From positions 1 to 64,000 of IMG/VR virus record IMGVR_UViG_3300028592_000008: a stretch of DNA of 64,000 nucleotides; one strand, written 5' to 3'. Both the position numbers and the translations under genes were made by a program. Numbering within the stretch: position 1 is the stretch's first letter; the number at the start of each line of letters is the position of its first letter. Shown piece after piece: positions 1 through 23,391 of this stretch. This DNA comes from a virus. The notes below the pieces were generated by a model that was given only the letters and a program-made list of their open reading frames with translations, had not been told where the DNA came from and ran no database searches.

Positions 1-36
1 GCCTGGGGCCGGGTGCCATTCCCGGCCGGAGGTAGA

Positions 37-690
37 TCACGCACTCATCAAGGCGACGTCGAGATCCCGGAGGGCCAGCCGGAAGCTGGGGTTCCAGTCT
101 CCCATACGGGGGTGACCGGCGGCGTCAGCGATCGGGCAGGCCCGGGACCCGGTTTCGGCTTCCCACACGTCGCAGGAGAACTCCTTGAGCGGGGCCGAGA
201 GGGCGGCGACCGTGTCGTTGAAGGCGAACTGCGTGCAGCGGTTGACGATCCGCTGTGGGAGCTTCTCGGGGTGGTTTGTCGTGAAGACGATCACCGATCT
301 GGCGGGCAACTGCTCGAGCCGGCCGAGCCAGATGTTCTCCGCGGCCGGGCTCATTCGGTCCGCTTCATCGACGGTCAGAACCTTCCACCCGGTCTTGCTG
401 AACATCGGGCGGAGGGCCAGGCCGCGGAAGGTCTCGATGACGCTCTCCGCGGTCTGCTGCCCGGCCGGGATCTGGTGGAAGCCGCCAAGGGCGTCCTTGG
501 ACGGGTCGGCGCCGAGGGCCGCGGCGAGCAGCCGGCCGGTCATCGTCTTCCCGACCCCGGACCCTCCGGAGAACATGAACACTTGCGGCGCCGGGTCGGC
601 GACGAACTTCGTGAGGTAGCGGACAATGTGCGGCTGACCCCGGAGTTCCGCGAGGCTCTTGGGGGCGTACTTGCGCTCGAGGCGTGACAT
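37..690 (-). CDS. Clamp-loader-like (DnaX/RFC family) AAA+ ATPase, ATPase domain only
   Basis: N-terminal LERKYAPKSLAELRGQ resembles the clamp-loader KYRP motif; Walker A GGSGVGKT; Walker B VLTVDEAD; IVFTTNHPEKL; NRC in place of SRC. Start moved to the ATG at 690, which follows an AAAGGA RBS. Confidence 0.8.
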   Translation of the reverse strand: MSRLERKYAPKSLAELRGQPHIVRYLTKFVADPAPQVFMFSGGSGVGKTMTGRLLAAALGADPSKDALGGFHQIPAGQQTAESVIETFRGLALRPMFSKTGWKVLTVDEADRMSPAAENIWLGRLEQLPARSVIVFTTNHPEKLPQRIVNRCTQFAFNDTVAALSAPLKEFSCDVWEAETGSRACPIADAAGHPRMGDWNPSFRLALRDLDVALMSA

Positions 691-725
691 AGCGTCCTTT
701 CTGGGGAACGGTGAAGCGGCCAGTA

Positions 726-742
726 GGTATTTCACAAACCGG
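726..742 (-). promoter_or_regulatory. Repeated motif GTTTGTGAAATACC upstream of a gene (copy 1)
   Basis: GGTATTTCACAAACCGG on the + strand, identical at 2365-2381, with variants at 3989-4003 and 4129-4144 and an inverted copy at 4191-4204. Confidence 0.65.
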
Positions 743-798
743 CTTTCTGAACAGCCCGCAGGCCGCCCGGGAGCGTTCCAGGGGGGCGAGCGGGAGTC

Positions 799-1593
799 TC
801 AGAACAGGAGTCCGGCCGGAGCGGCCTTCGTGGCGGGTGCAGCCGGCTCAGGCTCGCGGTCTTGCACCAGGGCGATCTCGACGACGATGTTCGTCATGTC
901 GAATCCGTCGTAATAAGTGCAGTCGATGCCGCAGTTCGCGGCGAGCGTGAGACCGGTCTCTCTTGACCAGGATTCGTACCGAGCGTTCTGCGTGTTCGTG
1001 TAGGACTGCCGGCCGGAGTATTCCCAATTCGTGGCCCCCCGGGGGAGGATCATCGTTCCGCCGTTGGTGCAGAGTCGCATTCCGATCTCGGCGACGGCGT
1101 GTGGGACGCTCGGCGCCGTGGGGTGCTGCTTGCGTCGCCCTTTGGGGACGGGCATGAACGGAGGGTTTGAGTAGAACTCCTCGAACTGCCGCCCCTTGAG
1201 AATCTCCGGGACGTCGAACACGTCCGCCACGATCCATTCAGCCTCGGGGAAGATTTGCCGGCCGATGGCGGCGTATTCTTCGTTGATCTCGACGCAGGTG
1301 ACCGCGGGGCGAGTCTCATTCCCCCAGCGTTCCCACTGGCGGTAGGAAAGGATTCCGTAGCCGGCACACAAATCGAGGACTCGCTTGGGCTCCTTGCGGT
1401 GCCAGTTCAGCGTTTCGATCTGGAAATCTCCGGCCAGGTCCCAAGGCGTGAAAAACGCTCCGCCGGCGCCGATGTCCGTTGTGGCGTACGGCTTGATGTC
1501 CCGGTAGAGCGCCTCGCGGTCGCTCAGGTCCCCGGCATTCAGGCGTTTCAAGGCGTTGTCCATCGCCTTGCGTTCGGGCTTCGTCAGCTTCAT
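799..1593 (-). CDS. SAM-dependent amino-methyltransferase (N6-adenine DNA MTase-like)
   Basis: GAFFTP motif, SAM-binding VLDLCAGYG, catalytic SNPPF motif. Confidence 0.8.
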   Translation of the reverse strand: MKLTKPERKAMDNALKRLNAGDLSDREALYRDIKPYATTDIGAGGAFFTPWDLAGDFQIETLNWHRKEPKRVLDLCAGYGILSYRQWERWGNETRPAVTCVEINEEYAAIGRQIFPEAEWIVADVFDVPEILKGRQFEEFYSNPPFMPVPKGRRKQHPTAPSVPHAVAEIGMRLCTNGGTMILPRGATNWEYSGRQSYTNTQNARYESWSRETGLTLAANCGIDCTYYDGFDMTNIVVEIALVQDREPEPAAPATKAAPAGLLF

Positions 1594-1659
1594 GGTGATC
1601 TCCAGTGGGGTCGGAACGGTCAATGTCCGCCAGGTCGGCGCCGGGCGGTTGTTGACGGC

Positions 1660-2292
1660 TCAGAGCTCGCAATGGGCGAGGATGTGGCGGCAGAGCCTCT
1701 TGGCTCCTGGCGAATCATCGACGATCTTCGTATACAGGTCGCGGCTCTTGATGTGTGGCATCGTCGGAGCAAGCCCGGAATAGAACCTCACCCGGCTCCG
1801 GAAGGAGTCGGCGAAATACTCTCCACCGTCCGTTCCGCCGCGCTGCAAGTCGAACCGTCCTTCGTAAACGGTTCCGTCCTCCCACTCGCACCTGAAGTCG
1901 CACTTGTCGTATCCCGTGGTCGGTGCCGAGTGCCCCCACGCTCGCATGCCGGATGATGCCTTGATGAAACCGGAGATCCAGTACGGCTTCTCCCAGTGCG
2001 ACCCCGGGACTCCGTCGCCAGGCTCCAGGGTGTTCACGAAGACCTCGGGGATTCCGCAGAGTTTGCTTGGCCCCTCGGCTCTGGTGATCGTGATCGACTT
2101 GAGTTTCACGAGCACTTCCGGAATGAGAACTCGCCACTGAAGCGATCCAGTGCCGGTGTCGAACAGCACGATTTCGAGCCCGTCTTCGGCTTTTGGTAGC
2201 CTCTCGAGGATTGCACCCTCAGCGGGGCTGCGGGTCAGGCGGTGCAGGTAGACTCCAACGTCCTCGACTGGCGGATGTTTTTCAGTTCCCAT
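1660..2292 (-). CDS. Hypothetical protein with LPD25-like (large polyvalent protein-associated) domain
   Basis: GYDKCDFRCEWEDGTVYEGRFDL resembles the GYDKxxF...YEGRxDL LPD25 signature as I recall it. Confidence 0.5.
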   Translation of the reverse strand: MGTEKHPPVEDVGVYLHRLTRSPAEGAILERLPKAEDGLEIVLFDTGTGSLQWRVLIPEVLVKLKSITITRAEGPSKLCGIPEVFVNTLEPGDGVPGSHWEKPYWISGFIKASSGMRAWGHSAPTTGYDKCDFRCEWEDGTVYEGRFDLQRGGTDGGEYFADSFRSRVRFYSGLAPTMPHIKSRDLYTKIVDDSPGAKRLCRHILAHCEL

Positions 2293-2364
2293 TAGCGTTT
2301 CTCCGTGGGTGAGTGTGAACGTCCAAGGCTCCCCGGCGGTCCGGGGAGCGAAGGTCGGCCACAA

Positions 2365-2381
2365 GGTATTTCACAAACCGG
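2365..2381 (-). promoter_or_regulatory. Repeated motif GTTTGTGAAATACC (copy 2)
   Basis: Exact 17-bp match to 726-742; intergenic, upstream of the gene starting at 2292. Confidence 0.65.
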
Positions 2382-2384
2382 GGT

Positions 2385-2561
2385 CTACTGGACGGCGTAG
2401 AGGGCCACAATCTCCTCTTCGGGCTCCTCGGGGGTGACGCCGAGCGAGAGCAGCTCCTGGGCGTGCTGGAACGATTCCCGGGTGCCGTGGACATGCCCGG
2501 CGCAGTAGCAGCCGACAGCAGTCATGGCGAACAGCAGGACGTGGATGGCGGTGGTCTTCAT
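2385..2561 (-). CDS. Small hypothetical protein (58 aa) with hydrophobic N-terminus
   Basis: Read manually: MKTTAIHVLLFAMTAVGCYCAGHVHG...; GGAG RBS; lies between repeated intergenic elements. Confidence 0.55.
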   Translation of the reverse strand: MKTTAIHVLLFAMTAVGCYCAGHVHGTRESFQHAQELLSLGVTPEEPEEEIVALYAVQ

Positions 2562-2630
2562 GGGGGCTCCGTGCGAGGGGGTGAACAGCCGAGTCCCGGG
2601 GCCATCCTGGCGGTCCCGGGGGACGGTAGG

Positions 2631-2792
2631 TCACTTTTCGATGCGAAACTCACAAATCAGCCATCGGGAAGGGACGATGCAGTGATTGAAAACCTTTCCG
2701 TTTCGCATGAACCAGACGTGGACGTGATCGGTCTTTCGCGGATCTTCGTCCGCAATGGCATCGCAAGTGGTGGATGTCAGCTTCGTCTTCAT
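2631..2792 (-). CDS. Small hypothetical protein (53 aa)
   Basis: Read manually: MKTKLTSTTCDAIADEDPRK...; GGGAG RBS; its stop lies inside the repeated TGACCTACC element. Confidence 0.5.
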   Translation of the reverse strand: MKTKLTSTTCDAIADEDPRKTDHVHVWFMRNGKVFNHCIVPSRWLICEFRIEK

Positions 2793-2827
2793 GGGCAACT
2801 CCCGGAGTGTGGTGAACAGCCGTCGCG

Positions 2828-2859
2828 CCGGGTGCCATTCCCGGCGGTGCGGTAGGTCA
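2828..2859 (-). repeat. Intergenic hairpin repeat CCGGG-AATGGCA-CCCGG downstream of a stop codon
   Basis: The 17-mer at 2828-2844 is identical to 9-25; related elements at 2580-2633 and, on the + strand, 5610-5632. Confidence 0.7.
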
Positions 2860-3051
2860 CTGGCGGTTGCCGATCGAACGCCGCAGGGCGTCGCGGTAGG
2901 TGGCGCAGTGGGCGTCGATGGCGGCTGACCCCTTGCGGGCGATCTTCAGCTCCTCGGGCGTGGGATTCAGGGCTCGGATCGCGTTGAGGCGCTCCCGGCG
3001 GCTGTCGACGTGGAATTCGTACCGGAACGTGGGGTCGTGCTTCACAGTCAC
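2857..3051 (-). CDS. Hypothetical protein
   Basis: 64-aa ORF with AAAGGA RBS in the leftward gene series. Confidence 0.55.
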   Translation of the reverse strand: MTVKHDPTFRYEFHVDSRRERLNAIRALNPTPEELKIARKGSAAIDAHCATYRDALRRSIGNRQ

Positions 3052-3078
3052 GGCTGGCGGTCCTTTCTGGCGTGCGTC

Positions 3079-3234
3079 TCACGCCCACAGCAGGTTGAGA
3101 ATCAGGATCAGGATGGCGGCGGCGACCAACGCGACCAGCAGCCCAACGGGAAGCGGTCCATCGTCGCCCGGATTCGTGTCCATTTCGTGCGTGTCCCCAT
3201 CGTGGGTGGCGTTGGGGTCGATGGGCTCAAACAT
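3079..3234 (-). CDS. Small membrane protein
   Basis: MFEPIDPN... with a C-terminal TM helix (LLVALVAAAILILILNLLWA). Confidence 0.5.
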   Translation of the reverse strand: MFEPIDPNATHDGDTHEMDTNPGDDGPLPVGLLVALVAAAILILILNLLWA

Positions 3235-3262
3235 GGTAAAAACCTCGGTCTGGCGGGTGCGT

Positions 3263-3276
3263 GTTTCCCGGGAAAC
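3263..3276. repeat. parS/NBS-like palindrome GTTTCCCGGGAAAC (first of 11 perfect copies)
   Basis: Other copies start at 3708, 10163, 18374, 19064, 28854, 32606, 39474, 49096, 54077 and 63841; one-mismatch copy at 54522. Confidence 0.85.
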
Positions 3277-3289
3277 GCTCCCGGGGGTC

Positions 3290-3682
3290 TCAGTAGCCGG
3301 CGGCCTCGGCGTAAGCGTCGCGGTGGAACGATCCTCCCCTGTGCCAGATGGGAACCATCGGAAGTCCGTCATCAGGCCCTTCGCCCGCCCGGAGGTCGAT
3401 GATCGGGCAGTGGAAGCCTCGGACGTCCTCGATTGGGCCGTCGCAGTCGCATCCTTCGCTCAGGCAATCGCACCGGACCTCCATGGCGTCCCGGTCGTAT
3501 TCGTACGTCACGCCCTCACCGCTCCAGCCTTCCTCGGTCTGGCGGGCGGAGTAGTGGCTCAGCTTCTGCCCGGGGCGGAGCGTGAGCGTCACATAGCCCC
3601 CGTCCTCGGGACCGGACCCGGAATGCCAAGTGTTGAACCTGGCGTTGGGCGGGAAGGCGCACATCGGAAGTTTGGCGGACAT
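3290..3682 (-). CDS. Hypothetical protein
   Basis: 130-aa ORF with AAAGGAG RBS. Confidence 0.7.
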   Translation of the reverse strand: MSAKLPMCAFPPNARFNTWHSGSGPEDGGYVTLTLRPGQKLSHYSARQTEEGWSGEGVTYEYDRDAMEVRCDCLSEGCDCDGPIEDVRGFHCPIIDLRAGEGPDDGLPMVPIWHRGGSFHRDAYAEAAGY

Positions 3683-3727
3683 GGGATGCTCCTTTCGTGA
3701 GCGTGGTGTTTCCCGGGAAACGATGGG

Positions 3728-3949
3728 TCAGATCATGCGGCTGCGGCGGACGTATCCACAGAAGCGAAACCAGTCAGCCACAAGCGCGGTGTTGATCGCC
3801 CGGCCTCTGGCGGCGGGCAGCAGATACGCCTTCCCGTCCTGGGCGTAGACATCCCAGCTCCTCATCGTGCCGACGTAGGTCGAATGGCCGACAACCATCT
3901 GGCGGATGCGTTGCGCCCGGGGGCCGCGGATCCGTTCAAACACTCGCAT
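3728..3949 (-). CDS. Hypothetical protein
   Basis: 73-aa ORF with AAGGAG RBS; first gene of the leftward arm. Confidence 0.6.
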   Translation of the reverse strand: MRVFERIRGPRAQRIRQMVVGHSTYVGTMRSWDVYAQDGKAYLLPAARGRAINTALVADWFRFCGYVRRSRMI

Positions 3950-4172
3950 TGTTGGTCTCCTTGTGGTGACTGGTCTGGCGGTCCGGGAGATATTTCACAA
4001 ACCCCGGTCTGGCGGTCTCCGGTCCACGTACGTCTGGCGCTCCTTCGAGTCAAGACGAGGGCTTGGTTTCGCGTCCGCCGCGTCCTGCATTAGTGAACGG
4101 CTGTCGCCGCAAACCAAAGCCTGCTAACGGTTTCACAAATCCGGTCCGTCTTGGAAAATCTCACGATGGGCA

Positions 4173-4204
4173 TTGACTTCATCCGAGACAGTTTGTGAAA
4201 TACC
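4173..4204 (+). promoter_or_regulatory. Putative promoter: TTGACT followed by the GTTTGTGAAATACC motif
   Basis: -35-like TTGACT at 4173, with the repeated motif covering the -10 position, at the divergence point. Confidence 0.5.
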
Positions 4205-4288
4205 TTCTGTCCGCCGGTCACGCTGACCCGGCAGACACGAACGGGACTAGGCTAGCTCGCTTTGCTGGCCGCTCTGAAAGGATCAATC

Positions 4289-4837
4289 ATGGTGGCTTCC
4301 GCACGGCTCGACTCAGGAACGGCTTTCTCTGCATTCGTGTCTCTCTTCCAGACCGCCGCCCGGCGCGGGGGACGCTGGCACAACATGCGGCGGAACATGG
4401 GGAATCCGTTCTCTCAGGATCATCAGCGCCACGCGACGGACGAGCAGGTACAGACGGGACTGGCATACGCTTGGCGCGAATGGCAGCGGCGGACCGGAAT
4501 CGAGGGGGCGCCGACGGACTGGACGGAGGCGACGCATCTCGCCAACAGCATCGCTCGGCGCGTTTGCCAACTGGTCAGCCGGGGGAGCGACTTCAATGCG
4601 GAACGTCGCGGACCCCGGACATGCGCCATGTCGCACGGCTTCGGGCGAGAGATCGACGAACGGGACCGGATCGAAGACGAAGAGACCGGCATCGAGGATC
4701 GGGGAGACGGCCGGATTGCCGAATACGATGAAGACGGCGGTTTCGTGGTCGCGCTCGGGGACGAGATCCGGGCGGAACTCTCGGCCGTCACGATCAAGCC
4801 GGTTCTCGCTTTCGTGAGCTTCGGACGCCGGGACTGA
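4289..4837 (+). CDS. Hypothetical protein
   Basis: AAAGGA RBS, ATG at 4289, coding-like composition. Confidence 0.6.
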   Translation: MVASARLDSGTAFSAFVSLFQTAARRGGRWHNMRRNMGNPFSQDHQRHATDEQVQTGLAYAWREWQRRTGIEGAPTDWTEATHLANSIARRVCQLVSRGSDFNAERRGPRTCAMSHGFGREIDERDRIEDEETGIEDRGDGRIAEYDEDGGFVVALGDEIRAELSAVTIKPVLAFVSFGRRD

Positions 4838-4952
4838 TCGACCGTAGGCGCTCCCGGCATCGCTCGGAGCGCCGTCGGCCGGTCACTCCGATCAGGCAAT
4901 CACCACACCGCCGGGACACGCTGACCCCCGGCACGAACAGGAGACTTTCGCT

Positions 4953-5594
4953 ATGGCTCGCACCATCAATCGCACCGCTCCGGCTGTCGTCATGTCGCTG
5001 CGCTCGGTTCTTTCGCTTGTTTCCGTCAACGGCCTGCAGCCGACGACCTTTCCGCAGGTCATCGGACTGACCGGCAAGCCCGCCGCCATCGTGCAGGCAG
5101 TTTGCTGCGGGCTCGCGGACAAGAGCATGGGCATCGACGAAGCCTTGGTCGCTCTCGGCGAACAGCCCGCACCGGCACCGGCGAAGCCTGCAGCACCGAA
5201 GAAGACCGCCGCCGAGCTGTTCCGGGAGTTTCAGGCCGGCAAGATCACCGAGGCGCAGCTTACGGCCGAGCTGGATCGACTGACCGTCCGCGCCCCGGCT
5301 CCGGTCAAACCGCTGGCAGAGATCACCATGACGGGCGACATGGTCGACCGTTGCATCCGGGACGCCGATGGGAATCTGATCCGCGAGCCCGGCAGCAAGA
5401 AGAACCAGAAGCACCAGATTGCCTACACGGGGAAGCCGATCATCAGCATCCGAGGCGGGAAGCCGATCCCGGCATGGACCGTCTACGCTGTGCTGAAACA
5501 CGCTGAGGCGCTCACGAAGGCACTGACGGAGCGAGGCTACACGGAATCCGAGGCCCGGAAGGATTCGACCGGAGCCGCCGCGCTGGCCGACTGA
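4953..5594 (+). CDS. Hypothetical protein
   Basis: AGGAG RBS; 213 aa with Pro/Ala/Lys linkers. Confidence 0.7.
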   Translation: MARTINRTAPAVVMSLRSVLSLVSVNGLQPTTFPQVIGLTGKPAAIVQAVCCGLADKSMGIDEALVALGEQPAPAPAKPAAPKKTAAELFREFQAGKITEAQLTAELDRLTVRAPAPVKPLAEITMTGDMVDRCIRDADGNLIREPGSKKNQKHQIAYTGKPIISIRGGKPIPAWTVYAVLKHAEALTKALTERGYTESEARKDSTGAAALAD

Positions 5595-5684
5595 TCGGAC
5601 TGGCCTTACGCGCCCGGCATGGCACCGGGCGCAGTAGGCCGGACCGACCCGGCACCGCTGACACACAGAACGGGAGAAAACGCT

Positions 5685-5897
5685 ATGACGGACGAGACGC
5701 TGTCGAGAATGGTCAATGCCTCACGGAGATCCGCAGCCGAGGTACTGCGCGGAATGATCGAATCGGGGGAGATGTTGCCCGGCACCAGTGTGCAGCACGC
5801 GATTCGGATTCTTGTCTGCCGAGGAGTGAACCTCACAGGCACAACACCGGAAGGTTGGGACCGCATCGAGGGAGGAGGAGAGACGCACGGCAGCTAG
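5685..5897 (+). CDS. Hypothetical protein
   Basis: GGGAG RBS; followed by a terminator. Confidence 0.5.
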   Translation: MTDETLSRMVNASRRSAAEVLRGMIESGEMLPGTSVQHAIRILVCRGVNLTGTTPEGWDRIEGGGETHGS

Positions 5898-5925
5898 ACC
5901 CGGCATTGAACGCGACGCAAGACAC

Positions 5926-5963
5926 AACCGCCTGCAGTCCACACCGGACGCAGGCGGTTTTTT
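5926..5963 (+). terminator. Rho-independent terminator
   Basis: AACCGCCTGC...GCAGGCGGTT stem followed by a T-run. Confidence 0.75.
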
Positions 5964-6365
5964 CATGCGCCGACCGGAACGCGGCAGACTGGCGTCAGGA
6001 TGGCCCGGCATCAGGAGGCGACCGGATTGCCACGCTGACGGATGAAACGCCCGGCAGCACGCACGGCAAGGCGTCTGGCGATGGAAACGAGACCGAGAGG
6101 AGGAAGCGAGATCCAGGCACGGGCGAACCAGGCACGCGGAGGAGGCGGAGAACGCCCGGCATCGGCTCGACCCGGCAGCATGCACTCAGCTACCAGGCAC
6201 AGAGAAGGCAACGACCTCGGCACAGAGCGAGGCCGCATGGACGACACGCATCGATGACACATGGGGATCGGACGGGGAGGGAGGGAGGAATGCAACCATC
6301 TGAGGCACGTATTGCACCGCGCTTATGCAGCGTAACGCAGCACGCTCCCGCGACGGAACCCTTGA

Positions 6366-6393
6366 AGTGAACATAACTTACATTATCGGACGT
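6366..6393 (-). other. dif-like XerC/XerD recombination site
   Basis: Minus strand reads ACGTCCGATAA-TGTAAG-TTATGTTCACT: 11+6+11 architecture with inner ATAA/TTAT and a XerD-arm TTATGT, in an AT-rich island in non-coding DNA. Confidence 0.75.
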
Positions 6394-6770
6394 TGAGCGA
6401 GGCGAGCGCAGGAGGCATCGCGAGGGCCGGACTGCAGCGGTTCGCAGCATCGGCACGGGTATCGGCCGTCATGCGCGAGGCACAAGGGGGGAGGGAGCCC
6501 CATCAGTCTGGCGGGTCGATGTGTATTGTCCCCCGTCCAAATTTTTCCCACAAAACCCCCCTGTCAGTCCGGCAGCCATTGGTTGCTCTAACCTCTATCC
6601 TCTTAGGGACTTTCTGCTGCTGCTCGCGGCGGGGCTTGGTGCCTGCTGGGTGGGCAGGTGTGGTTTGCTGGAGTTCTTCTGGGGTCGGGAGGGGTTGAAT
6701 TGGTTGGATCGTGTGGCGATGATGTGTTCATTGTCGGGGATTCTTGTCTGTATTGTGATGGGGTGATTGG

Positions 6771-7016
6771 ATGGAATGGCCGGTTGGACGGAAGCCTGTT
6801 TGGCCGGGGTACTTCTTTGACGGGAAGCTGTACCGCCGGACGCTGGTGGCGATGGTGGAGGAGGTGCCGATCCTGAAGGGTTGCGACCTGATGGGGGTAA
6901 AGGAGCGTCTCCGGGGGACGGCGAAGCGTCGCGGGGTAGGGATGCACGCGAAGGTGGAGGGGAAGGAGTTGGTGTTCCAGGCGATCCTTCGGGGGTCGGA
7001 AGGGGGTGCGGGGTGA
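6771..7016 (+). CDS. Hypothetical protein
   Basis: First ORF of the rightward operon; GTGA overlap with the next gene. Confidence 0.55.
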   Translation: MEWPVGRKPVWPGYFFDGKLYRRTLVAMVEEVPILKGCDLMGVKERLRGTAKRRGVGMHAKVEGKELVFQAILRGSEGGAG

Positions 7017-7540
7017 CGTTTGATTCTCAGCGGGCGATGGACCTGATCCGGTACTGTCGGGCGGAGTTGCAGGACGCTGGTCTGATTTCGGACAAGGAGT
7101 ACGCCGATCTGGTCGCCATGGGGAAGGACTCCCGGGAGCGTCTCGAGGATTACGACTCGATGCGGTCCCGGATTCGGGAGCTCGAGGGGCGGATCGCGGA
7201 CTACGAATCCGCTGGGGCGGACGTGCGGCGGCTGACCCGTCAGCTTGACGTGGAGATGCACGGGGAGGGGGCGGCTCCGCAGGCGAGTCTCTGCGACCTG
7301 ATGGGGTCCGGGAAGAAGCTGCGCGACCGGGCGGAGTTGGCGGAGCGGGTGGTCGCGGACCTTCTGGATCACTGGCCCGGGGAGTGGGTCTATGAGGACG
7401 CCCTCCCGGAGATGACGAAGGAACAGTTCGACCGGGCTTATCAGTTCAGCAAGGTCGATGGCGTGCGGATGTACCCGGCGATCCAGGGGATCATCGTTGA
7501 CTCGCTTGAAGGGGAGGCCGAGGCCGATGGGTCGTCGTGA
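7013..7540 (+). CDS. Hypothetical protein (coiled coil)
   Basis: GTG start overlaps the upstream stop; helical composition. Confidence 0.65.
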   Translation: MTFDSQRAMDLIRYCRAELQDAGLISDKEYADLVAMGKDSRERLEDYDSMRSRIRELEGRIADYESAGADVRRLTRQLDVEMHGEGAAPQASLCDLMGSGKKLRDRAELAERVVADLLDHWPGEWVYEDALPEMTKEQFDRAYQFSKVDGVRMYPAIQGIIVDSLEGEAEADGSS

Positions 7541-7630
7541 GAAGCATCGCCGGAAGGAAGAGCGGCGGCGCCGGGCGAAGATGGATCGGGCGTACGAGGA
7601 ATGGGTGGGGGCCGCGGGGGAGGTGGCGAA

Positions 7631-8161
7631 GTGAGTTCTATACGCGAACGTCTTTACGAGTCTGGAGAGGTCGCTCAGGTGGGCGACGTGGTGATGATCG
7701 ATTCTGTGTCGAGTGCAGAGGCGCGCGGCCTTGAGGCTGGCGAGCCTTATCGGGTCGTGGAGTTCAACTCGCTCGGTAATCTTGTGGTCGTTCCCCTGAA
7801 TGCAGTGGGCGAGAATCAAGGGCATGGTTCGCTCCGCTTCCGGTTGGTCAGGCGAGCAACTGCAGATGAAGTCCGAGAAGCCGCCAAGGATCGGCAGGCT
7901 CTTGTCGACGAGGTGGCGCGGCTGAAGGACGAGAACCAGCGGCTGCGGGAGGCGGGGGACAGTCCGGTGTTCTCGCCGATGGTCGTTCGTGCTGCGAGAC
8001 GGGCGCGGTCGCTCTATCTCGGTGAGCCTGTGCCGGACGCATGCCGCCTTCGCGCTCAGGACTGGGATGTGTTGGCAGAAGCCGCCCGTGACTTCCTCGC
8101 GTTGCACTTTGACCAGTTCGATGAATTGGGCGTCAGGACTGACACGAGTGCCCTGAAGTGA
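7631..8161 (+). CDS. Hypothetical protein
   Basis: GGAGGTG RBS, GTG start. Confidence 0.6.
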   Translation: MSSIRERLYESGEVAQVGDVVMIDSVSSAEARGLEAGEPYRVVEFNSLGNLVVVPLNAVGENQGHGSLRFRLVRRATADEVREAAKDRQALVDEVARLKDENQRLREAGDSPVFSPMVVRAARRARSLYLGEPVPDACRLRAQDWDVLAEAARDFLALHFDQFDELGVRTDTSALK

Positions 8162-8554
8162 TCCGCCCGCTGTCGACCGTCAAGTCAGCGTGCAGCCCGG
8201 TGCGAGGCCGGAGGGTGTCTGAACAAGTAACGCCGCCCTCGATCCGGGGCGAACTGAGGAGAGGTGGGAGATTCTGAGCCCGCTGATCGAGAAGCTGTGC
8301 TGGCGTAAGGGGTGTTACGAGCCCGGGGTCCCATCGGTCGCTCACGAGCTTTGCGAGTCCTGCCGGCGGGAGTGCTTCGCGCAGCTCGACCGGGCGGGGA
8401 TGCGTCATGGCGAAAAGGGGACTGTGATGCGGGCGATCCGGCGGTTCATGGAAGGGCTGCCGATCCTCCCGGATTCGGGATTGACCGACCGGGGTGGGCA
8501 GGGGTAGATTTCCGCCGCTGATTTCTGGAACGGGTTTGGACGCTTTGGGGAGAC

Positions 8555-10438
8555 ATGGGAATGGTCGAGATTCCGTCGTGGCTTTTCTGGTCAGTCTTTG
8601 TGTTGGCTTGGCTGCACGTGCTTGTTTCGTTTTGGGTCCTGTGGCAGTGGCGCCGAGAGAAGTCCCGGGCCGATGCGTTCCGCCGAGTTGTTGAGAAGTA
8701 TGAGGTTATTGTCGATCCAGGGGTCCCGGTGGGGGCACCCGCGGGGCGGAGCGGGGCGAGCGAGCCGGAGTACATGACCGAGGCTTCGCGGCCTTCGGTG
8801 GCCGGGGAGGACGGGAAGAAGCTCGCGGAGGACATGGTCGACCGTCAGCGGGAGCTCGATAAGTGCCGGGCGGAACTGACCAGCAAGGAGGAACTGCTCT
8901 CGGCTGAGATCGATCGGATCAGCGCGATCCGGCGGAACCTTGTCGCCGCGATGGAGGGCACCCGGGAGCAACTGAACTGGCTGGCCGGGCATCTCCGCCT
9001 GGAGCCACTGAAGATCGACGAGCCGACAGCGGACGCGGCGAAGCGGGTCGTGGCCGCGGCGGCTGAGAAGATTCGGGCGGCGACGCTGGAATCGCTCCCA
9101 GCGCCAGGCCCGGCGATCGTCGCCGTGAAGGGGCTGGCTGAGACTGTTCTGGTCCGCCACGACGGCCGGGACGTGGCGTGCCTGAAGTGGAAGCCGCGAC
9201 TCTGGGAGCCGCTCCCGGCCGAGTTCTACCACAAGGCCTCGGGGTCGGCCGGCTGGGCGATTCACAGGACCCAGCCGCAAGTCTCTGGGGAGTGGCTGAA
9301 GGTCTTCGGGGACGGGGAATTGGCCGTTCCGCTCTCGGTGCAGGCACACAGCCCGGAACTTGCGGAGATCGCGAAACTGTCCTCCGTGGCCGACCCGCTG
9401 AAGGTCCGGGCGATCGAGATCGAGGAAGCCCTCAAGGCCGTGCGTGAGACCGCCGGGGTGTACCTCAAGGCTCACGACGTCGCGAAGATCGGGGCCGCCC
9501 GGAACCGCCTGCAGCGCCGGGTCGATGGGCAACTGAAGCAGATCCACAAGCTGCTGAAGTGCATCGAGCGGCTGAAGCAGGAGGTCATCTCCGCCGTAGC
9601 CCGGGAGGGGACGCAGGTCTCCAAGTTCAAGGCCGAGGCGGACGACTGGCGGGCGAAGTACGACGAGATGCAGGGGCGGATCGGGACCGAGCGGAACACC
9701 GCCCTCGGACAGCTAAACGCCGAGAAGGAGCGGCTTGAGAAATGCGGTAAGGAGGCGAAAGATCCAGTCAAGGAGGCCTACTTCGCCAGCATGGCTGATG
9801 CCTTCCTGCGGGCGTACCAGATCGTCAACCGCTGCATCAAGCGGCGGGCCCCGGCGGGCGGATCGGCGGACGCTGGCCGGCGGGCGGCGACGGAGGTGGC
9901 CGTGGCCTGCGTGGAGGCGGCGATCGCGGCGGATGACGCTCCGCGGGAGATTGCTGTCAGAGGCGGATTGACAGCTTTTGCGAAGCCGTGGCACCCGAAG
10001 GCCGGAGACCTGCGTCCGGAGTTCTATTTCTGGAGGGGGTCGAGGTCGGTGGACAATGCGTGGTGTACGCGAAGCATGCCGGTAAGCGAGGCGATCAACG
10101 AATGGGAGCTACAAGACCGGGAACACATGGTCCCGTGCGACCATCCGCCGGCCGCGGAAATCGTTTCCCGGGAAACGCCGGCTCCTGGGACCGAGGAAAA
10201 AGCCTCTCCGGAGAAACCGAAGATCGAGCAGGGGGAGGTGTTCCGGGTCGGAACGGGGGAGTCCCTGGGGATCCACCAGTTCGTCCGGCTGAACCCCGGG
10301 GAGTGGCGTCCGGCGCCGCACATTGCGTGGTGTCCCGGGTGGGACCGCTTCTTCCGATTCGAGGTTCCCGGCTGGGTCCGGGAGGCGACGCCGTACCGTT
10401 TCTACCGCATTGCCACCGAGGAGGATCTGCTTCCATGA
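8555..10438 (+). CDS. Membrane-anchored coiled-coil protein
   Basis: N-terminal TM helix (WLFWSVFVLAWLHVLVSFWVLW) and long coiled coils; TTGACC-18-TAGATT promoter-like sequence at 8481-8510. Confidence 0.7.
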   Translation: MGMVEIPSWLFWSVFVLAWLHVLVSFWVLWQWRREKSRADAFRRVVEKYEVIVDPGVPVGAPAGRSGASEPEYMTEASRPSVAGEDGKKLAEDMVDRQRELDKCRAELTSKEELLSAEIDRISAIRRNLVAAMEGTREQLNWLAGHLRLEPLKIDEPTADAAKRVVAAAAEKIRAATLESLPAPGPAIVAVKGLAETVLVRHDGRDVACLKWKPRLWEPLPAEFYHKASGSAGWAIHRTQPQVSGEWLKVFGDGELAVPLSVQAHSPELAEIAKLSSVADPLKVRAIEIEEALKAVRETAGVYLKAHDVAKIGAARNRLQRRVDGQLKQIHKLLKCIERLKQEVISAVAREGTQVSKFKAEADDWRAKYDEMQGRIGTERNTALGQLNAEKERLEKCGKEAKDPVKEAYFASMADAFLRAYQIVNRCIKRRAPAGGSADAGRRAATEVAVACVEAAIAADDAPREIAVRGGLTAFAKPWHPKAGDLRPEFYFWRGSRSVDNAWCTRSMPVSEAINEWELQDREHMVPCDHPPAAEIVSRETPAPGTEEKASPEKPKIEQGEVFRVGTGESLGIHQFVRLNPGEWRPAPHIAWCPGWDRFFRFEVPGWVREATPYRFYRIATEEDLLP

Positions 10439-10833
10439 ACGTCAACCGCGAAATCCTGTTCTTTGGTGGCCCGGCGCACGGGATGGTCCAGACGATGCCA
10501 GACAGTGCCTTGAGCATTCCGTGCATTATCCAGCAGCGGGACGACGTGGACATCTGCCGGGCGTTCTCGCCGGCTTGGATCGACGTCCCGATGAACTGGC
10601 TGCAGCGGCTTGCCGCGACGCTCTTCTTGATCCCGCGGCGTGTCCTGAAACCATCCGAGCACTTCAAGCCGCGGGAGGTCAGATACCGTGCCGTGGGGCT
10701 ATACCGCCATCCTGAGACCTGGGCGGTGATGACCGTCGACGGGAAGCCCCTGGAGGGGCAGGATCTCGCCGACGCAGCCTACTACATCGACTCCCGGAGG
10801 CTGCAGCCGGTCGAGCGGTATCCGATACGCTGA
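10435..10833 (+). CDS. Hypothetical protein
   Basis: ATGA overlap; begins MNVNREILFFGGPAHG. Confidence 0.65.
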   Translation: MNVNREILFFGGPAHGMVQTMPDSALSIPCIIQQRDDVDICRAFSPAWIDVPMNWLQRLAATLFLIPRRVLKPSEHFKPREVRYRAVGLYRHPETWAVMTVDGKPLEGQDLADAAYYIDSRRLQPVERYPIR

Positions 10834-10844
10834 TTCGTGGTCAA

Positions 10845-10918
10845 TGGGGCGTAGCTCAATCGGTAGAGCGATCGAGGTGCATGCCTGAGAGATGCCGGTT
10901 CGAGTCCGGCCGCCCCTA
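10845..10918 (+). tRNA. tRNA-like element with aberrant anticodon arm (possible pseudo-tRNA; anticodon uncertain, perhaps GCA)
   Basis: Acceptor stem GGGGCG/CGCCCC, D-arm GCTC-AATCGGTA-GAGC and T-arm GCCGG-TTCGAGT-CCGGC are canonical; the anticodon arm does not form a clean 5-bp stem with a 7-nt loop. Confidence 0.6.
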
Positions 10919-10955
10919 CTCCCGGAATTCCCGGGCAAATTGAAAGGACACTGCA

Positions 10956-11147
10956 ATGCTGGTTCTGAGCCGCAAAGAGGGTGAGTCGATCATCATTGGG
11001 GATGGGATCGAGGTGAAGGTCGTCGACATCGACGGCAACAAGGTGCGGATCGGCATCGAGGCGCCGCGGAACGTATCGGTTCACCGCAAGGAGGTTTACG
11101 ACGCGATGAAGCGTGAAGCGAAGGAAGGAGGCAGCCGTGGGGCTTGA
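10956..11147 (+). CDS. csrA: Carbon storage regulator CsrA (RNA-binding translational regulator)
   Basis: [48 protein letters not shown] is a textbook CsrA. Confidence 0.95.
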
Positions 11148-12027
11148 AACTGGGATTAGCTGGACCGACTACACATGGAACCCATGGCAGGGCTGCACGA
11201 AGATCAGTCCGGCGTGCGCGAATTGCTATATGTTCCCGGGGATGTGGCGATGGGGCAAGGACCCGACAGTTGTCCGCCGCTCGTCTCCACAGACTTTCAA
11301 TCTGCCGCTCAAGCGGAAGTCGGCGAAGAACGGCGGCGGATACGCGATGGAGCCGGGCAAGTGGGTGTTCACCTGCTCGTGGTCCGACTGGTTCCACAAG
11401 GACGCGGACCCTTGGAGGGACGAAGCCTGGGCAATCGTGAGGGCTCGCCCGGACCTGAACTTCCAGATCGTCACGAAGCGGACGGAGCGGATCAAGGACT
11501 GTCTGCCATCCGATTGGGGCGACGGATACCGGAACGTCATCCTGATCGCGACTGTCGAGAATCAGGAGTTCCTCGAAAAGCGGGTTCCGGACCTGTTCTC
11601 CGTCCCGGCGTGGCGTCGCGGGTTGTCGTGCGAGCCGCTGCTGGGGCCGCTCGATTTCCACCGCAGGTGCTTTGCCGACAACTGCCAGGGAGAGTGCGGA
11701 TGGCCTTCTCCGTTCGATCTCCTTGGAGACAACAAAAACGGATCCGGCGCACTGATCGACTGGATCATCACCGGCGGGGAATCCGGAACAGGGGCGCGGC
11801 CATCGAATCCTCAGTGGTTCCGGGACGTCCGGGATCAGTGCTTCTTGGCGGGAGTTCCGTTCCACCACAAGCAAAACGGCGAGTGGGTGTCTGTCAGTGA
11901 GGTCGAGGGACCCGGGGAGCACTTCGCCTTCTCGGATCACAGGGTTGTGCGGCGGGTAGGTGTCGCCGCGGCTGGGAGAACGATCGACGGAAAGGTCTAT
12001 GATGCCTTCCCGTCCATGGGAGCATAG
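11137..12027 (+). CDS. DUF5131 / phage Gp37-Gp68 family radical-SAM-like protein
   Basis: [53 protein letters not shown]. Confidence 0.9.
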
Positions 12028-12031
12028 GGAA

Positions 12032-12559
12032 ATGCGTCGTTTAAGCTGCGCGATTCTCCCGGACCTGTCGCGGGTCCGGGAGGTGACGGTGTTCTACAGG
12101 ATGCGTTGGCGTTTCGTGCGGCCGGGGGACGAAGTCCTGCTGGTCGACCGGATCGCCAATCGATCGGGAGGCGAGGCGAAAGGCCTGTCGGTAGTCCGGG
12201 TCGTTTCGATCCGCGAGACCCGGCTTATCGAGATGACGGCGGCGGCTGACGGCGGCCGGGCGGAGACGGACAGGTGCGGCTTTTGGGGGAAGACCCCGCA
12301 GGAGTTCGTGGACGCGATGTGTGACGCGCACAAGACCGATCCGTGGTACATGATCTCCCGGATCGAGGTGGAGCACGCGGAGCCGCTTCCGGAGCCGAAC
12401 TTCCGCGGGTATCTCCCGATGGACGTTCACCCCGCCCCGGAAGGTCGCGTCGCCAAGGCGATGCGAAACGGGATCGCCGCCATGACGAAGTCTCCCAACG
12501 AGGATGACATCGAACGCTGGGATGACGACGGCGGCCCGGCAGTGGAGACCGAGCAGTGA
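12032..12559 (+). CDS. ASCH/PUA-like domain protein
   Basis: Pattern T...R..W....PGD.V; VRVVSIRETRL; GF...TPQEFV...ISRIEVE. Confidence 0.55.
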   Translation: MRRLSCAILPDLSRVREVTVFYRMRWRFVRPGDEVLLVDRIANRSGGEAKGLSVVRVVSIRETRLIEMTAAADGGRAETDRCGFWGKTPQEFVDAMCDAHKTDPWYMISRIEVEHAEPLPEPNFRGYLPMDVHPAPEGRVAKAMRNGIAAMTKSPNEDDIERWDDDGGPAVETEQ

Positions 12560-13059
12560 TCTTGCTGGCAATCGACCCCGGGAGCGCGGAGACCGCCTGG
12601 GTCAAAATCGAGCGTGAGACCGGGCGGATCTGCGGGAAGGAGATCGTCGAAAACGACGCCTTCCGGCTGCAGCTCTGGCGGCGCGAAATCGACGGGTACG
12701 ACCGGATCGCGCTCGAGTATTTCCAGCCGCGCGGGATGCCGACCGCTGCGGAGGAGATGGACACGATCTTCTGGTCCGGCCGCTTCATCGAGGCGGCGGG
12801 CCGGGACTGGGACAAGGTGTTCCGGATGCAGGAGAAAATCTCCATCTGCGGGCACGGCTCGGCGACGGACTCCAACATCTCCACGGCGCTCCGGGATATG
12901 TACGGGGGGCAGAAGGAGGCCAAGGGGCTCAAGGCGAGCCCGGGGCCGCTGTACGGGTTCAAGGACGACCTGTGGGCGGCCCTGGCAATCGGAGTGACGT
13001 GGTTTCGTCGGAACGGGAGCCCGGAGTGGGTTCCGAACCTCGAGGAGATTCGGAAGTGA
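12556..13059 (+). CDS. RuvC-like Holliday junction resolvase / RNase H-fold nuclease
   Basis: ILLAIDPG, IALE and DDLWAALAIG motifs. Confidence 0.75.
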   Translation: MILLAIDPGSAETAWVKIERETGRICGKEIVENDAFRLQLWRREIDGYDRIALEYFQPRGMPTAAEEMDTIFWSGRFIEAAGRDWDKVFRMQEKISICGHGSATDSNISTALRDMYGGQKEAKGLKASPGPLYGFKDDLWAALAIGVTWFRRNGSPEWVPNLEEIRK

Positions 13060-13475
13060 ACTACACGTTGGACGCTCTGGACAGCCAGGCAATCACGATG
13101 ATCTCGCGCGGCGTCGGGACCCTCCGGATTTCGGAGGCTGCGAAGCGGAAGATCATGGCGGCTTGGAAACCGCCGGATCACATGCGGCATCCGCTTATCT
13201 CATTCGAGGGGCTGCTCGGCCTGGGGATCGACGTCACGGTGGACCCGTCGATGCCGATCTTCGTGAAGTCGAACCGCCTGCGTTCCCGGGACCGCTTCAC
13301 GCTCTTCGAGGCCGCGGACGCCGATTGGGCGGTGGCGGCCGGGCTCGCGGAGTGGGAGCTGGACGAGGTCCATGCCGTCTGGTTCGACGAGCTGCGTCTT
13401 CAGTTCTACCGCTCGCACTACAACTTCGGGGTGAAGTTGATGGAGCCGCGGGGATTCATCCGGGGGCTCGCGTAG
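13056..13475 (+). CDS. Hypothetical protein
   Basis: GTGA overlap with the upstream gene. Confidence 0.6.
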   Translation: MNYTLDALDSQAITMISRGVGTLRISEAAKRKIMAAWKPPDHMRHPLISFEGLLGLGIDVTVDPSMPIFVKSNRLRSRDRFTLFEAADADWAVAAGLAEWELDEVHAVWFDELRLQFYRSHYNFGVKLMEPRGFIRGLA

Positions 13476-13476
13476 C

Positions 13477-13695
13477 GTGAAGCAGTTTCAGATCAGCGAG
13501 GAAGACCTGCAGTCCCTCGAGCACATTCTCCCGGCCGTGCTGTGGAAGCTGACCTGCAGGCCAGATGCGGACCCGCAGGATCGCGTCCACTTCCGTCAGG
13601 TCCGGGGCATCCTGACAAACGTGCGATGGGGATACTGGCCCCCGGAGAACGTAGAGATCATTCCGCCAGGGGAGACTGACCATGCTGCTGAGTGA
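13477..13695 (+). CDS. Hypothetical protein
   Basis: 72-aa ORF filling the operon gap. Confidence 0.55.
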   Translation: MKQFQISEEDLQSLEHILPAVLWKLTCRPDADPQDRVHFRQVRGILTNVRWGYWPPENVEIIPPGETDHAAE

Positions 13696-14428
13696 GTTTC
13701 AGGCGTTGCCATTTCAGGACGCCGCACTGAATTGTGGGCAGAAGATCCAGATCATCCGCGGGGGCAATCGGTCCTCGAAGAGCCTGGTCGCTGCCGTGAA
13801 GGTGGCCGCCGCGCTGACCGGGGAGACGGTGAAGCTGTCCAACGGGGCGGGCGTGGCGTACACCCCGGCGAAGCGGGTCTACTGCGCCGGGAAGGACTTC
13901 GAGCACGTCTCGGAGAAAATGGCGGCGCCGCTGTTCGGGTCGGCCATCGGAATCGGGGAGGCCCCGGGACTGATCGCCGCCGACAAGATCGAGATGGTTT
14001 CGTGGTTCAACAAGACGCTTGGCTGGCCGGCGATGGTCCGGCTGAAGAGCGGTGCCGAGGTTGTTTTCGGACAGGGATTCAGCAATCACGGGTTCCGCTT
14101 CGCGATCATCTGGGCAGACGAGAAGGTGCTCAGCGACGGGCGGCTCCTGTCGATGGTTGCGCAGGCCGACGTCTTCATCTGGTCGACCTGGCCGGACTCG
14201 ACGAACGACGAGCTCCGGAGGCTGTGCAAGCTGGCGGCGGAGACCGGCGCGGAGTTCGTCTTCCGGATGCAGGACAACACCACGATCTCCGAAGAGAAGC
14301 GGGCGTCGATCCTGGAGACGTGGGGAGCATTGGGGTCGCAGCATTTGCAGGCCCGGAACCTCGGCGAATTCCCGGCCGATCCGCCGGCCGAAGAGAAAGC
14401 TCTTGACACGGAGAAGCCGGCCCCCTAG
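13682..14428 (+). CDS. Truncated paralog of terminase large subunit (ATPase domain only)
   Basis: Colinear with TerL 24023-25774: IRGGNRSSKS vs IRGGNRSGKS; IIWADEK vs IIWVDEK; WSTWPDSTN vs WSTWPTSTN; WGALGSQHLQARNLGEF vs WQALGAGHVQARNEGEF. Ends before the nuclease domain. Confidence 0.85.
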   Translation: MLLSEFQALPFQDAALNCGQKIQIIRGGNRSSKSLVAAVKVAAALTGETVKLSNGAGVAYTPAKRVYCAGKDFEHVSEKMAAPLFGSAIGIGEAPGLIAADKIEMVSWFNKTLGWPAMVRLKSGAEVVFGQGFSNHGFRFAIIWADEKVLSDGRLLSMVAQADVFIWSTWPDSTNDELRRLCKLAAETGAEFVFRMQDNTTISEEKRASILETWGALGSQHLQARNLGEFPADPPAEEKALDTEKPAP

Positions 14429-14431
14429 TGT
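14403..14431 (+). promoter_or_regulatory. Sigma70-type promoter
   Basis: TTGACA, 17-bp spacer, TAGTGT. Confidence 0.65.
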
Positions 14432-14437
14432 TCCGCC

Positions 14438-15000
14438 GGTGACGCCTTCCTGTCCTCAACCGGGAAGTCGAAAATTTGATTTTGCATTTCGTAGGCTTCG
14501 GCCTGCGGAAATAAGCCCGTGTGGTTAGGCGAGTTGAGGCGCCTTCCACGCGGGCTATTTTCGTGGACTGAGGCGAATGAACGAGCCAAAGCTCTCATAG
14601 CGCCCATTTGCAGTTCTGGTTAAGCACGAACCCCTGGGTGCGACCGGAGCCAAGCATATGGGCACCTTAACGCCCAAGGTATGTCGGGGACGTGAACGCC
14701 GGGAAAGGGTTATTTGCTGCCCGTGTCGATTGCAGGCGAAGGTCGCCGCGAAGCACGGGGTAAGGCGTAATTCCCCGGAGACATGATGTGGCGATGGTAG
14801 CCTAAACCTCGCTGGGCAATATCACCTTCCACCTTGTGTGGACACCGCATTAAGCGGAGCAACCGTCGTGAGGAATCAGGCTGAGTTCGCAGCGACGTTA
14901 AACAAATGCGGGGAGTAGCCCCACAAGCCATCACGCGCCGGGACCAAACCCTTAGCGCTCAAGCCGGGACCGATGGACGCTGTTCTTTTGTTGGACGAAC
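14438..15000 (+). ncRNA. Candidate large structured non-coding RNA
   Basis: No credible ORF; lower GC than the flanks; consecutive nested stems including a C(UUCG)G hairpin at 14490-14507; directly downstream of a promoter. Confidence 0.5.
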
Positions 15001-15024
15001 ACTGGACTCTTTGAGGATTATGAC

Positions 15025-15456
15025 ATGCCACGTTACGAGCTTATCAATCCGAGCGACTACTACACCTTCGAAGCCCGGGACATCCTGATCGCCGGCGCGG
15101 TGACGATGTTCCTGAGTTCCAACTTCGGGGCGGTGCAGATCCACCCGGAGGGGGACGAGCGGACGCCGATGCTGTTCGGCTGGGAGGAGTGGTTCAAGTC
15201 GAAGGGGGTCGACCTGCATGATCCGAAGTGGACCCGGGAGAACCTGCAGGCGATCGCGGAGGCTTTCGAGTCGTTCGTCATCGGGGACCGGGCGGAGTAC
15301 ATGGCTGGGCTCGAGGCGACCCTGGAGGCAGACCGGCCGGCGTTCATCGAGAAGTGGAACAACGAGAAGCGGAGCAGCGTGAACGACATCGGGAAGGCCG
15401 CGCGGAGCTACGCGACTCAGTGTCGGAAGATGCTTGAGGCTGTGGCCGCGGGCTGA
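15025..15456 (+). CDS. Hypothetical protein
   Basis: GAGGA RBS; 143 aa. Confidence 0.7.
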   Translation: MPRYELINPSDYYTFEARDILIAGAVTMFLSSNFGAVQIHPEGDERTPMLFGWEEWFKSKGVDLHDPKWTRENLQAIAEAFESFVIGDRAEYMAGLEATLEADRPAFIEKWNNEKRSSVNDIGKAARSYATQCRKMLEAVAAG

Positions 15457-15491
15457 GTCGCCCGGGATCGAACACTGGACGCTGGGAGTCG

Positions 15492-15800
15492 ATGATGGTG
15501 ACGCCGATCGGCCCGGATGACGTGGTGGCAAACCGCGGGGTGACGACGATCCCGCAGGCGGTGATCCTCGCCTTCAACCGTCTGATCGAGGGGCGGTGGG
15601 ACGGGGTGCAGGCCCGGTTCACGCGGTCGGATGCGGTCGGAGCGATCTGGGCGGCGACGGGTCTGTGCGAGCAGGAGATGTTGCACGCCCGGCATCTGGA
15701 CATTGAGCCGCTGTACCGGGACGCTGGGTGGAAGGTGACGTACGAGGCCCCGGAGATCGGGGAGACGTGGGAAGCCCATTACGTTTTCGAGGTGCGGTGA
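15492..15800 (+). CDS. Hypothetical phage protein
   Basis: GGGAG RBS; LDIEPLYRDAGWKVTY segment. Confidence 0.65.
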   Translation: MMVTPIGPDDVVANRGVTTIPQAVILAFNRLIEGRWDGVQARFTRSDAVGAIWAATGLCEQEMLHARHLDIEPLYRDAGWKVTYEAPEIGETWEAHYVFEVR

Positions 15801-16210
15801 TGGACCCGGTGTCTTTTCAGATCGCTCTGCTGTTCGTCGTCCTGGGCGTCTGCGCGGCCGCGGTGTTGCGGAAGATGCAGGAGACCAGGGAGTTCGAGTT
15901 GCGGATGTTTCAGATCGCCGAGCGGTGGGACAATCGCTGCGACTATCGATGGCAGGACCGGGTCGAGATTGACCCTGTGAAGGCCGAGGAGGCGCACGAC
16001 AAAATCGTCCGAGATCACAAGGCGTATTTCATCGAACTCGAGTGGCGCCGTCTCGGCGCGGGAGGATCCAGTGGTGGCGAGAAACCAGAAGACTCAGCCG
16101 GACCCGGTGGCGGCGATGATCGGGCCGATGCGTCGGGCGGCCCTGGCGGGGACGTATGCCGGGAAGGTGCCGACTCCGTACTTCATGTCGTGCCGCCGGG
16201 TGATTCCTGA
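15800..16210 (+). CDS. Membrane protein, hypothetical
   Basis: TGATG coupling; N-terminal TM helix. Confidence 0.55.
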   Translation: MDPVSFQIALLFVVLGVCAAAVLRKMQETREFELRMFQIAERWDNRCDYRWQDRVEIDPVKAEEAHDKIVRDHKAYFIELEWRRLGAGGSSGGEKPEDSAGPGGGDDRADASGGPGGDVCREGADSVLHVVPPGDS

Positions 16211-23377: not shown

Positions 23378-23391
23378 CATTGGGTGACACC

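Follow-up and report, generated by a model that had tools for sequence, protein, structure and literature searches.

A tailed phage from soil that encodes no integrase carries one dif-like site of 28 bp, and both arms of this site are identical to those of dif-like sites in planctomycete genomes. Judged from these sequences, the phage probably borrows the XerC and XerD recombinases of its host, a trick so far described for plasmids and small non-tailed phages. The phage is represented in IMG/VR by a single contig of 72,427 nt that is classed as "linear". The first 64,000 nt of this record form the window, which is the whole stretch of DNA analyzed here. The record has a G+C content of about 65% and a CheckV completeness estimate of 100%, and the phage is present in five soil metagenome runs.

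A single dif-like site in a non-coding stretch

The dif-like XerC/XerD core site lies on the minus strand at positions 6366–6393 and reads ACGTCCGATAA-TGTAAG-TTATGTTCACT. It is composed of an XerC-type arm (6383–6393), assigned from its sequence and from comparison with a bacterial family, a central region of 6 bp (TGTAAG, 6377–6382), assigned from its sequence and from host spacers, and an XerD-type arm (6366–6376), assigned from its sequence and from host sites. The two arms are each 11 bp long and show inner ATAA/TTAT dyad symmetry around the 6-bp centre, which is the architecture of dif-type sites. The phage site and the dif of Frankia alni, as quoted in PMC3025954, are identical at 18 of 28 positions.

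The site is genuine, has no second copy, and far exceeds what chance would yield. With up to three mismatches, the 28-mer matches once in the 64,000-nt window, and none of 100 shuffled sequences reaches a single match. The host-derived pattern ACGTCCGATAA-N6-TTATGTT, searched with the same tolerance, also matches once in the window and in none of 100 shuffles. The shorter motif ATAA-N6-TTATGT has a single occurrence in the full 72,427-nt record; in 1.15 Mb of related phage loci it is found at one other place, which is not dif-like and is present in two loci. At the base composition of the phage, the chance expectation of an exact match to 18 fixed bases is 1.4e-7.

The site sits in a non-coding stretch of about 1.17 kb (5595–6770) in which no open reading frame (ORF) of at least 50 aa passes the coding filter (GC3 > 0.72 and GC2 < 0.60). 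Sequence and ORF filter agree with the original prediction, which had placed a dif-like site on this strand within a long non-coding stretch. The plus strand of the stretch is purine-rich to the left of the site, and GC skew is 0.24 over positions 6001–8000. Two plus-strand ORFs (4262–4837 and 4953–5594) precede it, and a terminator-like inverted repeat followed by a T run (5913–5972, plus strand) would close these genes; the repeat is not in the output of a consensus terminator scan.

In soil run X3, a contig of 286 nt spans positions 6309–6594 with zero differences, and the site is therefore intact in that run. Contigs of four soil runs, with 26–49% of each run read, were compared with positions 1–14000, and among the matches listed there is no junction between phage and chromosome at the site, a result that is uninformative either way.

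Host dif-like sites and the probable host

The first host scan used the pattern CCGATAATG-N4-TTATGTT, which leaves the spacer and the outer arms free, and matched at least 120 genome contigs. The outer arm ACGT, which lay outside the query, is present in 64 of 120 genome contigs among the matches listed, and the record titles place 57 of these 64 in Planctomycetota lineages (Pirellulales, Planctomycetaceae, Gemmataceae, Thermoguttaceae, Phycisphaerae, Gimesia, and others). A comparison with host dif sites had been expected to help name the host, and it led to this phylum. A further search with the phage arms, in which the spacer could vary, covered 401 genomes from the phylum of a Gemmataceae genome. 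With up to two mismatches it matched 31 of the 401 Planctomycetota genomes, and the reversed control matched 0 of 401.

Two of these genomes, G388 and G260, contain the dif-like site ACGTCCGATAATGTCCGTTATGTTCACT in single copy. Its arms are identical to those of the phage at 22 of 22 positions and the whole site at 26 of 28; the spacer is TGTCCG in the bacteria and TGTAAG in the phage, and spacer positions 4 and 5 are the sole differences. Each genome also encodes two strong PF00589 matches (E 1e-43 to 5e-46) in frames of 312–377 aa, which are XerC/XerD-sized but untyped. In the family of G388, 103 of 121 genomes match the phage arms with up to three mismatches, 101 of them exactly once, compared with 1 of 121 for the control. 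The family consensus is ACGTCCGATAA-TGTC[CT]G-TTATGTTnnnT. The XerC-type arm is identical across the listed family sites, with the exceptions of contig G401:C38, G142, and a poor second match in G473, and the XerD-type arm TTATGTTCACT is identical in G388, G260, G142, and G401:C38. A second dif-like site is found in just two of the 121 genomes, namely on a plasmid in G401 and as the poor match in G473.

Similarity between the phage and the host dif locus is confined to 31–32 nt and ends 2 nt outside the 28-mer on each side. The site itself is thus what is kept, and the lack of flank homology beyond 2 nt argues against recent passive capture of host DNA. By its sequence, the site is a mimic of host dif, which goes beyond mere likeness to the E. 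coli site. The titled records with a TGTC[CT]G-type spacer are Gimesia, Schlesneria, and "Planctomycetaceae", and it is from these that the family is named. The host is probably a soil planctomycete of the family that, by record titles, includes Gimesia and Schlesneria. Local G+C is 58–61% in G388 and G260, about 63.5% in G161, 66% in another family member, and 65% in the phage.

A related prophage provides independent support for a planctomycete host. A profile of the phage terminase matches 2 of the 121 family genomes, one of which is G388. A 351-kb contig of G388 holds syntenic homologues of the phage head protein, terminase, and portal at 27–44% identity, and the prophage also matches six further ORFs of the structural region and the C-terminus of a 1590-aa phage protein. 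This distantly related prophage (C22:184828–249000) has a tyrosine integrase at one end (C22:184828–185361), 4.5 kb from the last homologue. It is not at dif, since the prophage is on contig C22 and the dif-like site on C28. The integrase-bearing prophage indicates that the phage lineage has temperate members in bacteria whose dif it copies.

A second host candidate comes from a metagenome scan with the inner arms and the phage spacer, which found 29 contigs. Of these, 24 have 63–70% G+C and read ACTTCCGATAA-TGTAAG-TTATGTTnnnn, with a spacer identical to that of the phage; in the best match, L393, 20 of 22 arm positions and 6 of 6 spacer positions agree. This site type was found in 0 of 301 genomes of the Acidobacteriota phylum, three of which matched with other spacers, and in 0 of 251 Planctomycetota genomes. 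The genes on the high-GC contigs, restriction-modification genes and a transposase, are uninformative on lineage. The XerC-side flank of these contigs (L373–L398, L400, L401) is conserved and the XerD-side DNA varies, containing MmeI-type and other restriction-modification genes or a transposase, so that they look like variable defence islands beside dif. The host is thus a Planctomycetaceae-like bacterium whose spacer differs slightly, or else a member of a high-GC lineage whose spacer is identical.

Whether the host sites are true dif sites at the replication terminus was examined by GC skew in one family member, with a mixed outcome. In E. coli, a switch from negative to positive GC skew marks the origin. 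In G161, a single contig of 6.76 Mb, skew flips at the dif-like site (C1:4025385–4025412) from -0.039 on the left to +0.027 on the right (p 0.0046). Position 0 shows no such switch, and the polarity at the site is the reverse of that expected of a terminus by the E. coli convention. Matches to DnaA lie at 28 and 2,882,525. This lineage may have inverted skew, or else an unusual replication map.

Some planctomycete genomes have paired sites. In Gemmatales, two inverted dif-like sites have their XerC arms facing each other with 34–59 bp between them (G001:C5:135946–136035, G004:C45:10818–10919, and G005:C891:2065–2179), and Xer recombination between them would flip the short intervening segment. 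In G121, another of these Gemmatales genomes, the two sites are separated by 2 kb (C753:95–2148). A genome-wide dif prediction in 2011 failed for the one Planctomycetota genome tested (PMC3025954).

Gene content and relatives of the carrier phage

The carrier is a tailed phage with genes for a major head protein (20798–21955), a large terminase (24023–25774), a portal (26258–28603), and a tail tube (31066–31953). It encodes tRNA-Cys(GCA) at 10845–10919 and tRNA-Trp(CCA) at 56427–56501, and nothing else matched in Rfam. Its DNA metabolism genes comprise a clamp loader, a DNA methyltransferase, DUF5131, a Holliday-junction resolvase, a PDDEXK nuclease, RecT, a helix-turn-helix protein, and a helicase. 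The clamp loader and DNA methyltransferase genes lie to the left of the dif-like site; DUF5131, the Holliday-junction resolvase, and the head protein, terminase, portal, and tail tube genes lie to its right. With phage genes on both sides, the site is not a prophage boundary, in agreement with the original prediction.

The phage appears to lack a recombinase of its own, one of the properties of an IMEX (integrative mobile element exploiting Xer). Across the whole record, no tyrosine recombinase domain (PF00589) was found at E <= 1 and no "Recombinase" domain of large serine recombinases (PF07508), and the sole candidate is a partial Resolvase-like domain. It lies in a 445-aa ORF (17818–19155, plus strand) with two resolvase-like halves and a Resolvase-type match of 38 bits, which aligns solely to residues 51–155 of gamma-delta resolvase (E 2e-4). 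Neither half has a canonical N-terminal serine motif by eye, and the ORF contains no DNA-binding or "Recombinase" domain. The predicted lack of a tyrosine integrase or an intact serine integrase therefore holds, the latter as far as it is testable.

The search of the remaining contig that had been suggested, for an integrase, parA, or rep, recognized none in the 72,427 nt. No ParB_N domain or plasmid replication initiator was recognized in the record, most genes of which have no family match. No ParA match rose above the cut-off, and the only CbiA match (11.6 bits) is inside the clamp loader gene. The 72 kb encode no FtsK-like activator, no repressor or other sign of lysogeny was recognized, and the record has no end repeats.

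The phage has few known relatives. A collection of isolate phages contained no match to positions 5000–25000 by megablast or to the large terminase by tblastn, and searches of IMG/VR with two single proteins adjoining the site returned no close relatives. The best terminase relatives have 55% identity in a large protein collection, where P0002–P0006 reach 51–55% and are encoded on contigs of up to 72,803 nt, and at most 39% in IMG/VR. Sixteen of these distant IMG/VR relatives contain no credible dif-like site, with three weak matches compared with eight for the control, and 4 of the 16 encode a tyrosine integrase.

Candidate roles of the site

The site is likely a working substrate of host XerC and XerD, as its arms and the host comparison suggest. 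Its role is tentatively proposed to be multimer resolution of a circular phage replicon. The replicon, either a replicative form or an episomal, carrier-state prophage, would form dimers and multimers by homologous recombination, which the phage RecT and exonuclease would promote. XerC and XerD would then bind the two arms and recombine two directly repeated phage sites to restore monomers, and a spacer unlike that of chromosomal dif would prevent full recombination with the chromosome.

Several observations are consistent with multimer resolution. The arms agree with a host site that is single-copy across its family, XerC/XerD-sized recombinases are present in both genomes with identical arms, similarity to the host is restricted to the site, and the phage encodes RecT, a PDDEXK nuclease, and a Holliday-junction resolvase. 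The 121 family genomes show no tandem-dif prophage signature. A plasmid of the same family also has this type of site. Contig G401:C38 is 56,953 nt long, its ends overlap by 141 nt, and its genes include metabolic cargo and one for a TraG/TrwB-type coupling protein; from its sequence, it is a circular plasmid of about 57 kb. Its dif-like site (10486–10513) combines the same XerD arm with a spacer, TGTATC, that is not the chromosomal one.

This design is that of known plasmid Xer sites. ColE1 cer, pSC101 psi, and the dif sites of secondary replicons likewise consist of a single host-type core site on a replicon without its own recombinase, with host-dif-like arms and a spacer unlike the chromosomal one. 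The carrier here is instead a 72-kb tailed phage in which no accessory sequences, partition genes, or replication genes were recognized, whereas cer and psi depend on accessory proteins according to the available text of PMC5357621.

Among tailed phages, P1 keeps its circular prophage monomeric with the site-specific Cre-lox system. P1 has a recombinase and a partition system of its own, and the present phage encodes neither. Multimer resolution is also weakened by the lack of a recognized ParB_N, ParA above cut-off, plasmid replication initiator, or repressor, by a record that is "linear" and without end repeats, which leaves circularity putative, and by the 16 distant relatives without a credible site. 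Multimers would be harmless to a concatemer-packaging phage during lytic growth, so a benefit would require a putative episomal phase.

Similar sites are common on viral contigs. The pattern ACGTCCGATAA-N6-TTATGTT is present in at least 116 IMG/VR contigs with 34–67% G+C, compared with 2 for the reversed control, an enrichment of at least 58-fold. From contigs of at least 25 kb with varied sites, 30 records were chosen (G512–G541); each contains exactly one site (control 0 of 30), and seven have direct terminal repeats. PF00589 is absent from 21 of the 30, including 10 of the 16 records that are at least 90% complete, and 13 of these 16 encode a large terminase. The stretches around the other viral sites share no more than isolated gene matches with this phage.

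Three records (G512, G520, and G541) encode a tyrosine integrase at a long distance from their one dif-like site. Two of them, G520 and G541, are listed as proviruses; their integrase gene is at the end of the record and their dif-like site in the interior. This distance indicates that phage dif-like sites can serve a non-integrative job, which favours multimer resolution and counts against integration. In seven records (G512, G514, G520, G521, G525, G528, and G530), the site is about 0.3–1 kb from the large terminase gene. G533 encodes an Xer-like recombinase (E 2.5e-50), and the integrase genes of G524 and G532 are about 1 kb away from the site.

Alternatively, the site may be an attP for integration at host dif, which would make the phage a tailed IMEX; this is possible but doubtful. 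Host XerC and XerD would pair the phage site with chromosomal dif, and the first strand exchange, by XerC, would fall in the part common to both spacers (TGT). Replication, a junction resolvase, or XerD would then complete the junction, and the system would replace the tyrosine integrase carried by distant relatives. The phage has no tyrosine or large serine integrase of its own, its distant relatives (the G388 prophage and 4 of the 16 from IMG/VR) are temperate with an integrase, and most of the chosen dif-bearing records also lack PF00589. The 24 high-GC contigs share the phage spacer, and such a host would permit complete exchange.

The double-stranded attP of VGJphi is described to act by this mechanism. 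The arrangement also resembles the attP of VGJphi, as described in the available text of PMC5357621. That attP is likewise one double-stranded dif-like site with both arms, in a phage that encodes no integrase, and its spacer matches that of host dif next to XerC and departs from it towards XerD; the two spacer differences found here, at positions 4 and 5, are also on the XerD side. VGJphi, however, belongs to the small inoviruses, and its integration at dif1 is documented, whereas the phage described here is a tailed dsDNA phage for which no integrated form was found.

Other results argue against integration. The site lies between phage genes, 6.3 kb into the contig, and the scans for an integrated copy were empty: a 20-mer of phage flank plus arm matched 0 metagenome contigs, and the exact 23-nt core was absent from viral contigs and from species genome contigs. 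No dif-flanked prophage is present in the 121 family genomes, among which the true host genome is not included, and the related prophage in G388 is located away from dif.

That plasmids, filamentous phages, microviruses, and tailless phages exploit host Xer is an established fact. Gokushovirus dif motifs are reportedly a counterpart case of a dif-like attP in phages. In dif-type double-jelly-roll vibriophages, a dif-like attP has replaced the integrase module and "int-type" relatives keep the integrase, according to the available text of PMC12715192; the integrase-bearing distant relative in G388 parallels this division. The double-jelly-roll and gokushovirus cases involve small-genome, non-tailed phages for which dif-flanked prophages have been curated, in contrast to the tailed phage described here. 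Use of dif/Xer by Bifidobacterium prophages was considered as a further case and dropped; the available part of PMC6109161 says nothing of it. Among the open-access papers listed by literature searches, no description of a tailed phage as an IMEX was found. A broader proposal is speculative and rather unlikely as a whole. It holds that tailed phages of many bacterial phyla commonly use one dif mimic to borrow host XerC and XerD, as a hitherto undescribed way of maintenance or lysogeny, and that this phage is a VGJ-like, reversibly integrating tailed IMEX whose mimic names its host.

It is improbable that the site is unused by Xer, whether as a relic of captured host DNA or as an AT-rich palindrome that serves as an origin element or binds a phage protein. 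The site lacks a conserved counterpart in the 16 distant relatives, and its long non-coding setting could be an origin or control region. A chance match is nevertheless far too rare to account for it, all 22 arm positions equal host dif next to flanks without homology, and the site type is strongly enriched among viral contigs.

The original prediction had also described parS-like sites. With up to three mismatches, canonical parS matches two copies of TGTTTCCCGGGAAACG (13 of 16 positions) and nothing else, and these are assumed to be the sites that were meant. Both belong to a 14-bp perfect palindrome, GTTTCCCGGGAAAC, which has 13 exact copies between 3263 and 69454 that are scattered throughout the 72 kb, most of them at gene boundaries or in short intergenic gaps. 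Copies in the window are at 3263, 3708, 10163, 18374, 19064, 28854, 32606, 39474, 49096, 54077, and 63841; another is at 69454 of the record, and a variant is at 54522. Two copies are in frame within ORF 17818–19155, and both encode RFPGND. None of 5 candidate host genomes contains the palindrome, and G388 and G260 have one perfect canonical parS each. As a centromere of the parS type would match the palindrome of host ParB and be clustered, GTTTCCCGGGAAAC looks like a phage regulatory repeat (an operator or promoter) or a terminator-like element instead. Its centre resembles the Bacillus Noc-binding site more than parS.

A phage mini-chromosome that mimics dif to recruit host XerCD and parS to recruit host ParB is thus highly implausible: the dif mimic stands and a palindrome with a partial parS match exists, but its copies are scattered, candidate hosts lack it and use canonical parS, and the phage encodes neither ParA nor ParB. 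An Xer-type site on an integrase-less phage is the part of the original interpretation that stands, and the parS and mini-chromosome part is set aside.

If the site works as a substrate of host XerC and XerD, viromics could no longer safely take the lack of an integrase to mean a virulent lifestyle. The 28-bp site would also serve as a marker for host prediction, which in this case assigns a phage without an isolate match to the Planctomycetota, and would come with a consensus dif for that phylum. It would further raise a testable question about how phages are carried in slow-growing soil bacteria.
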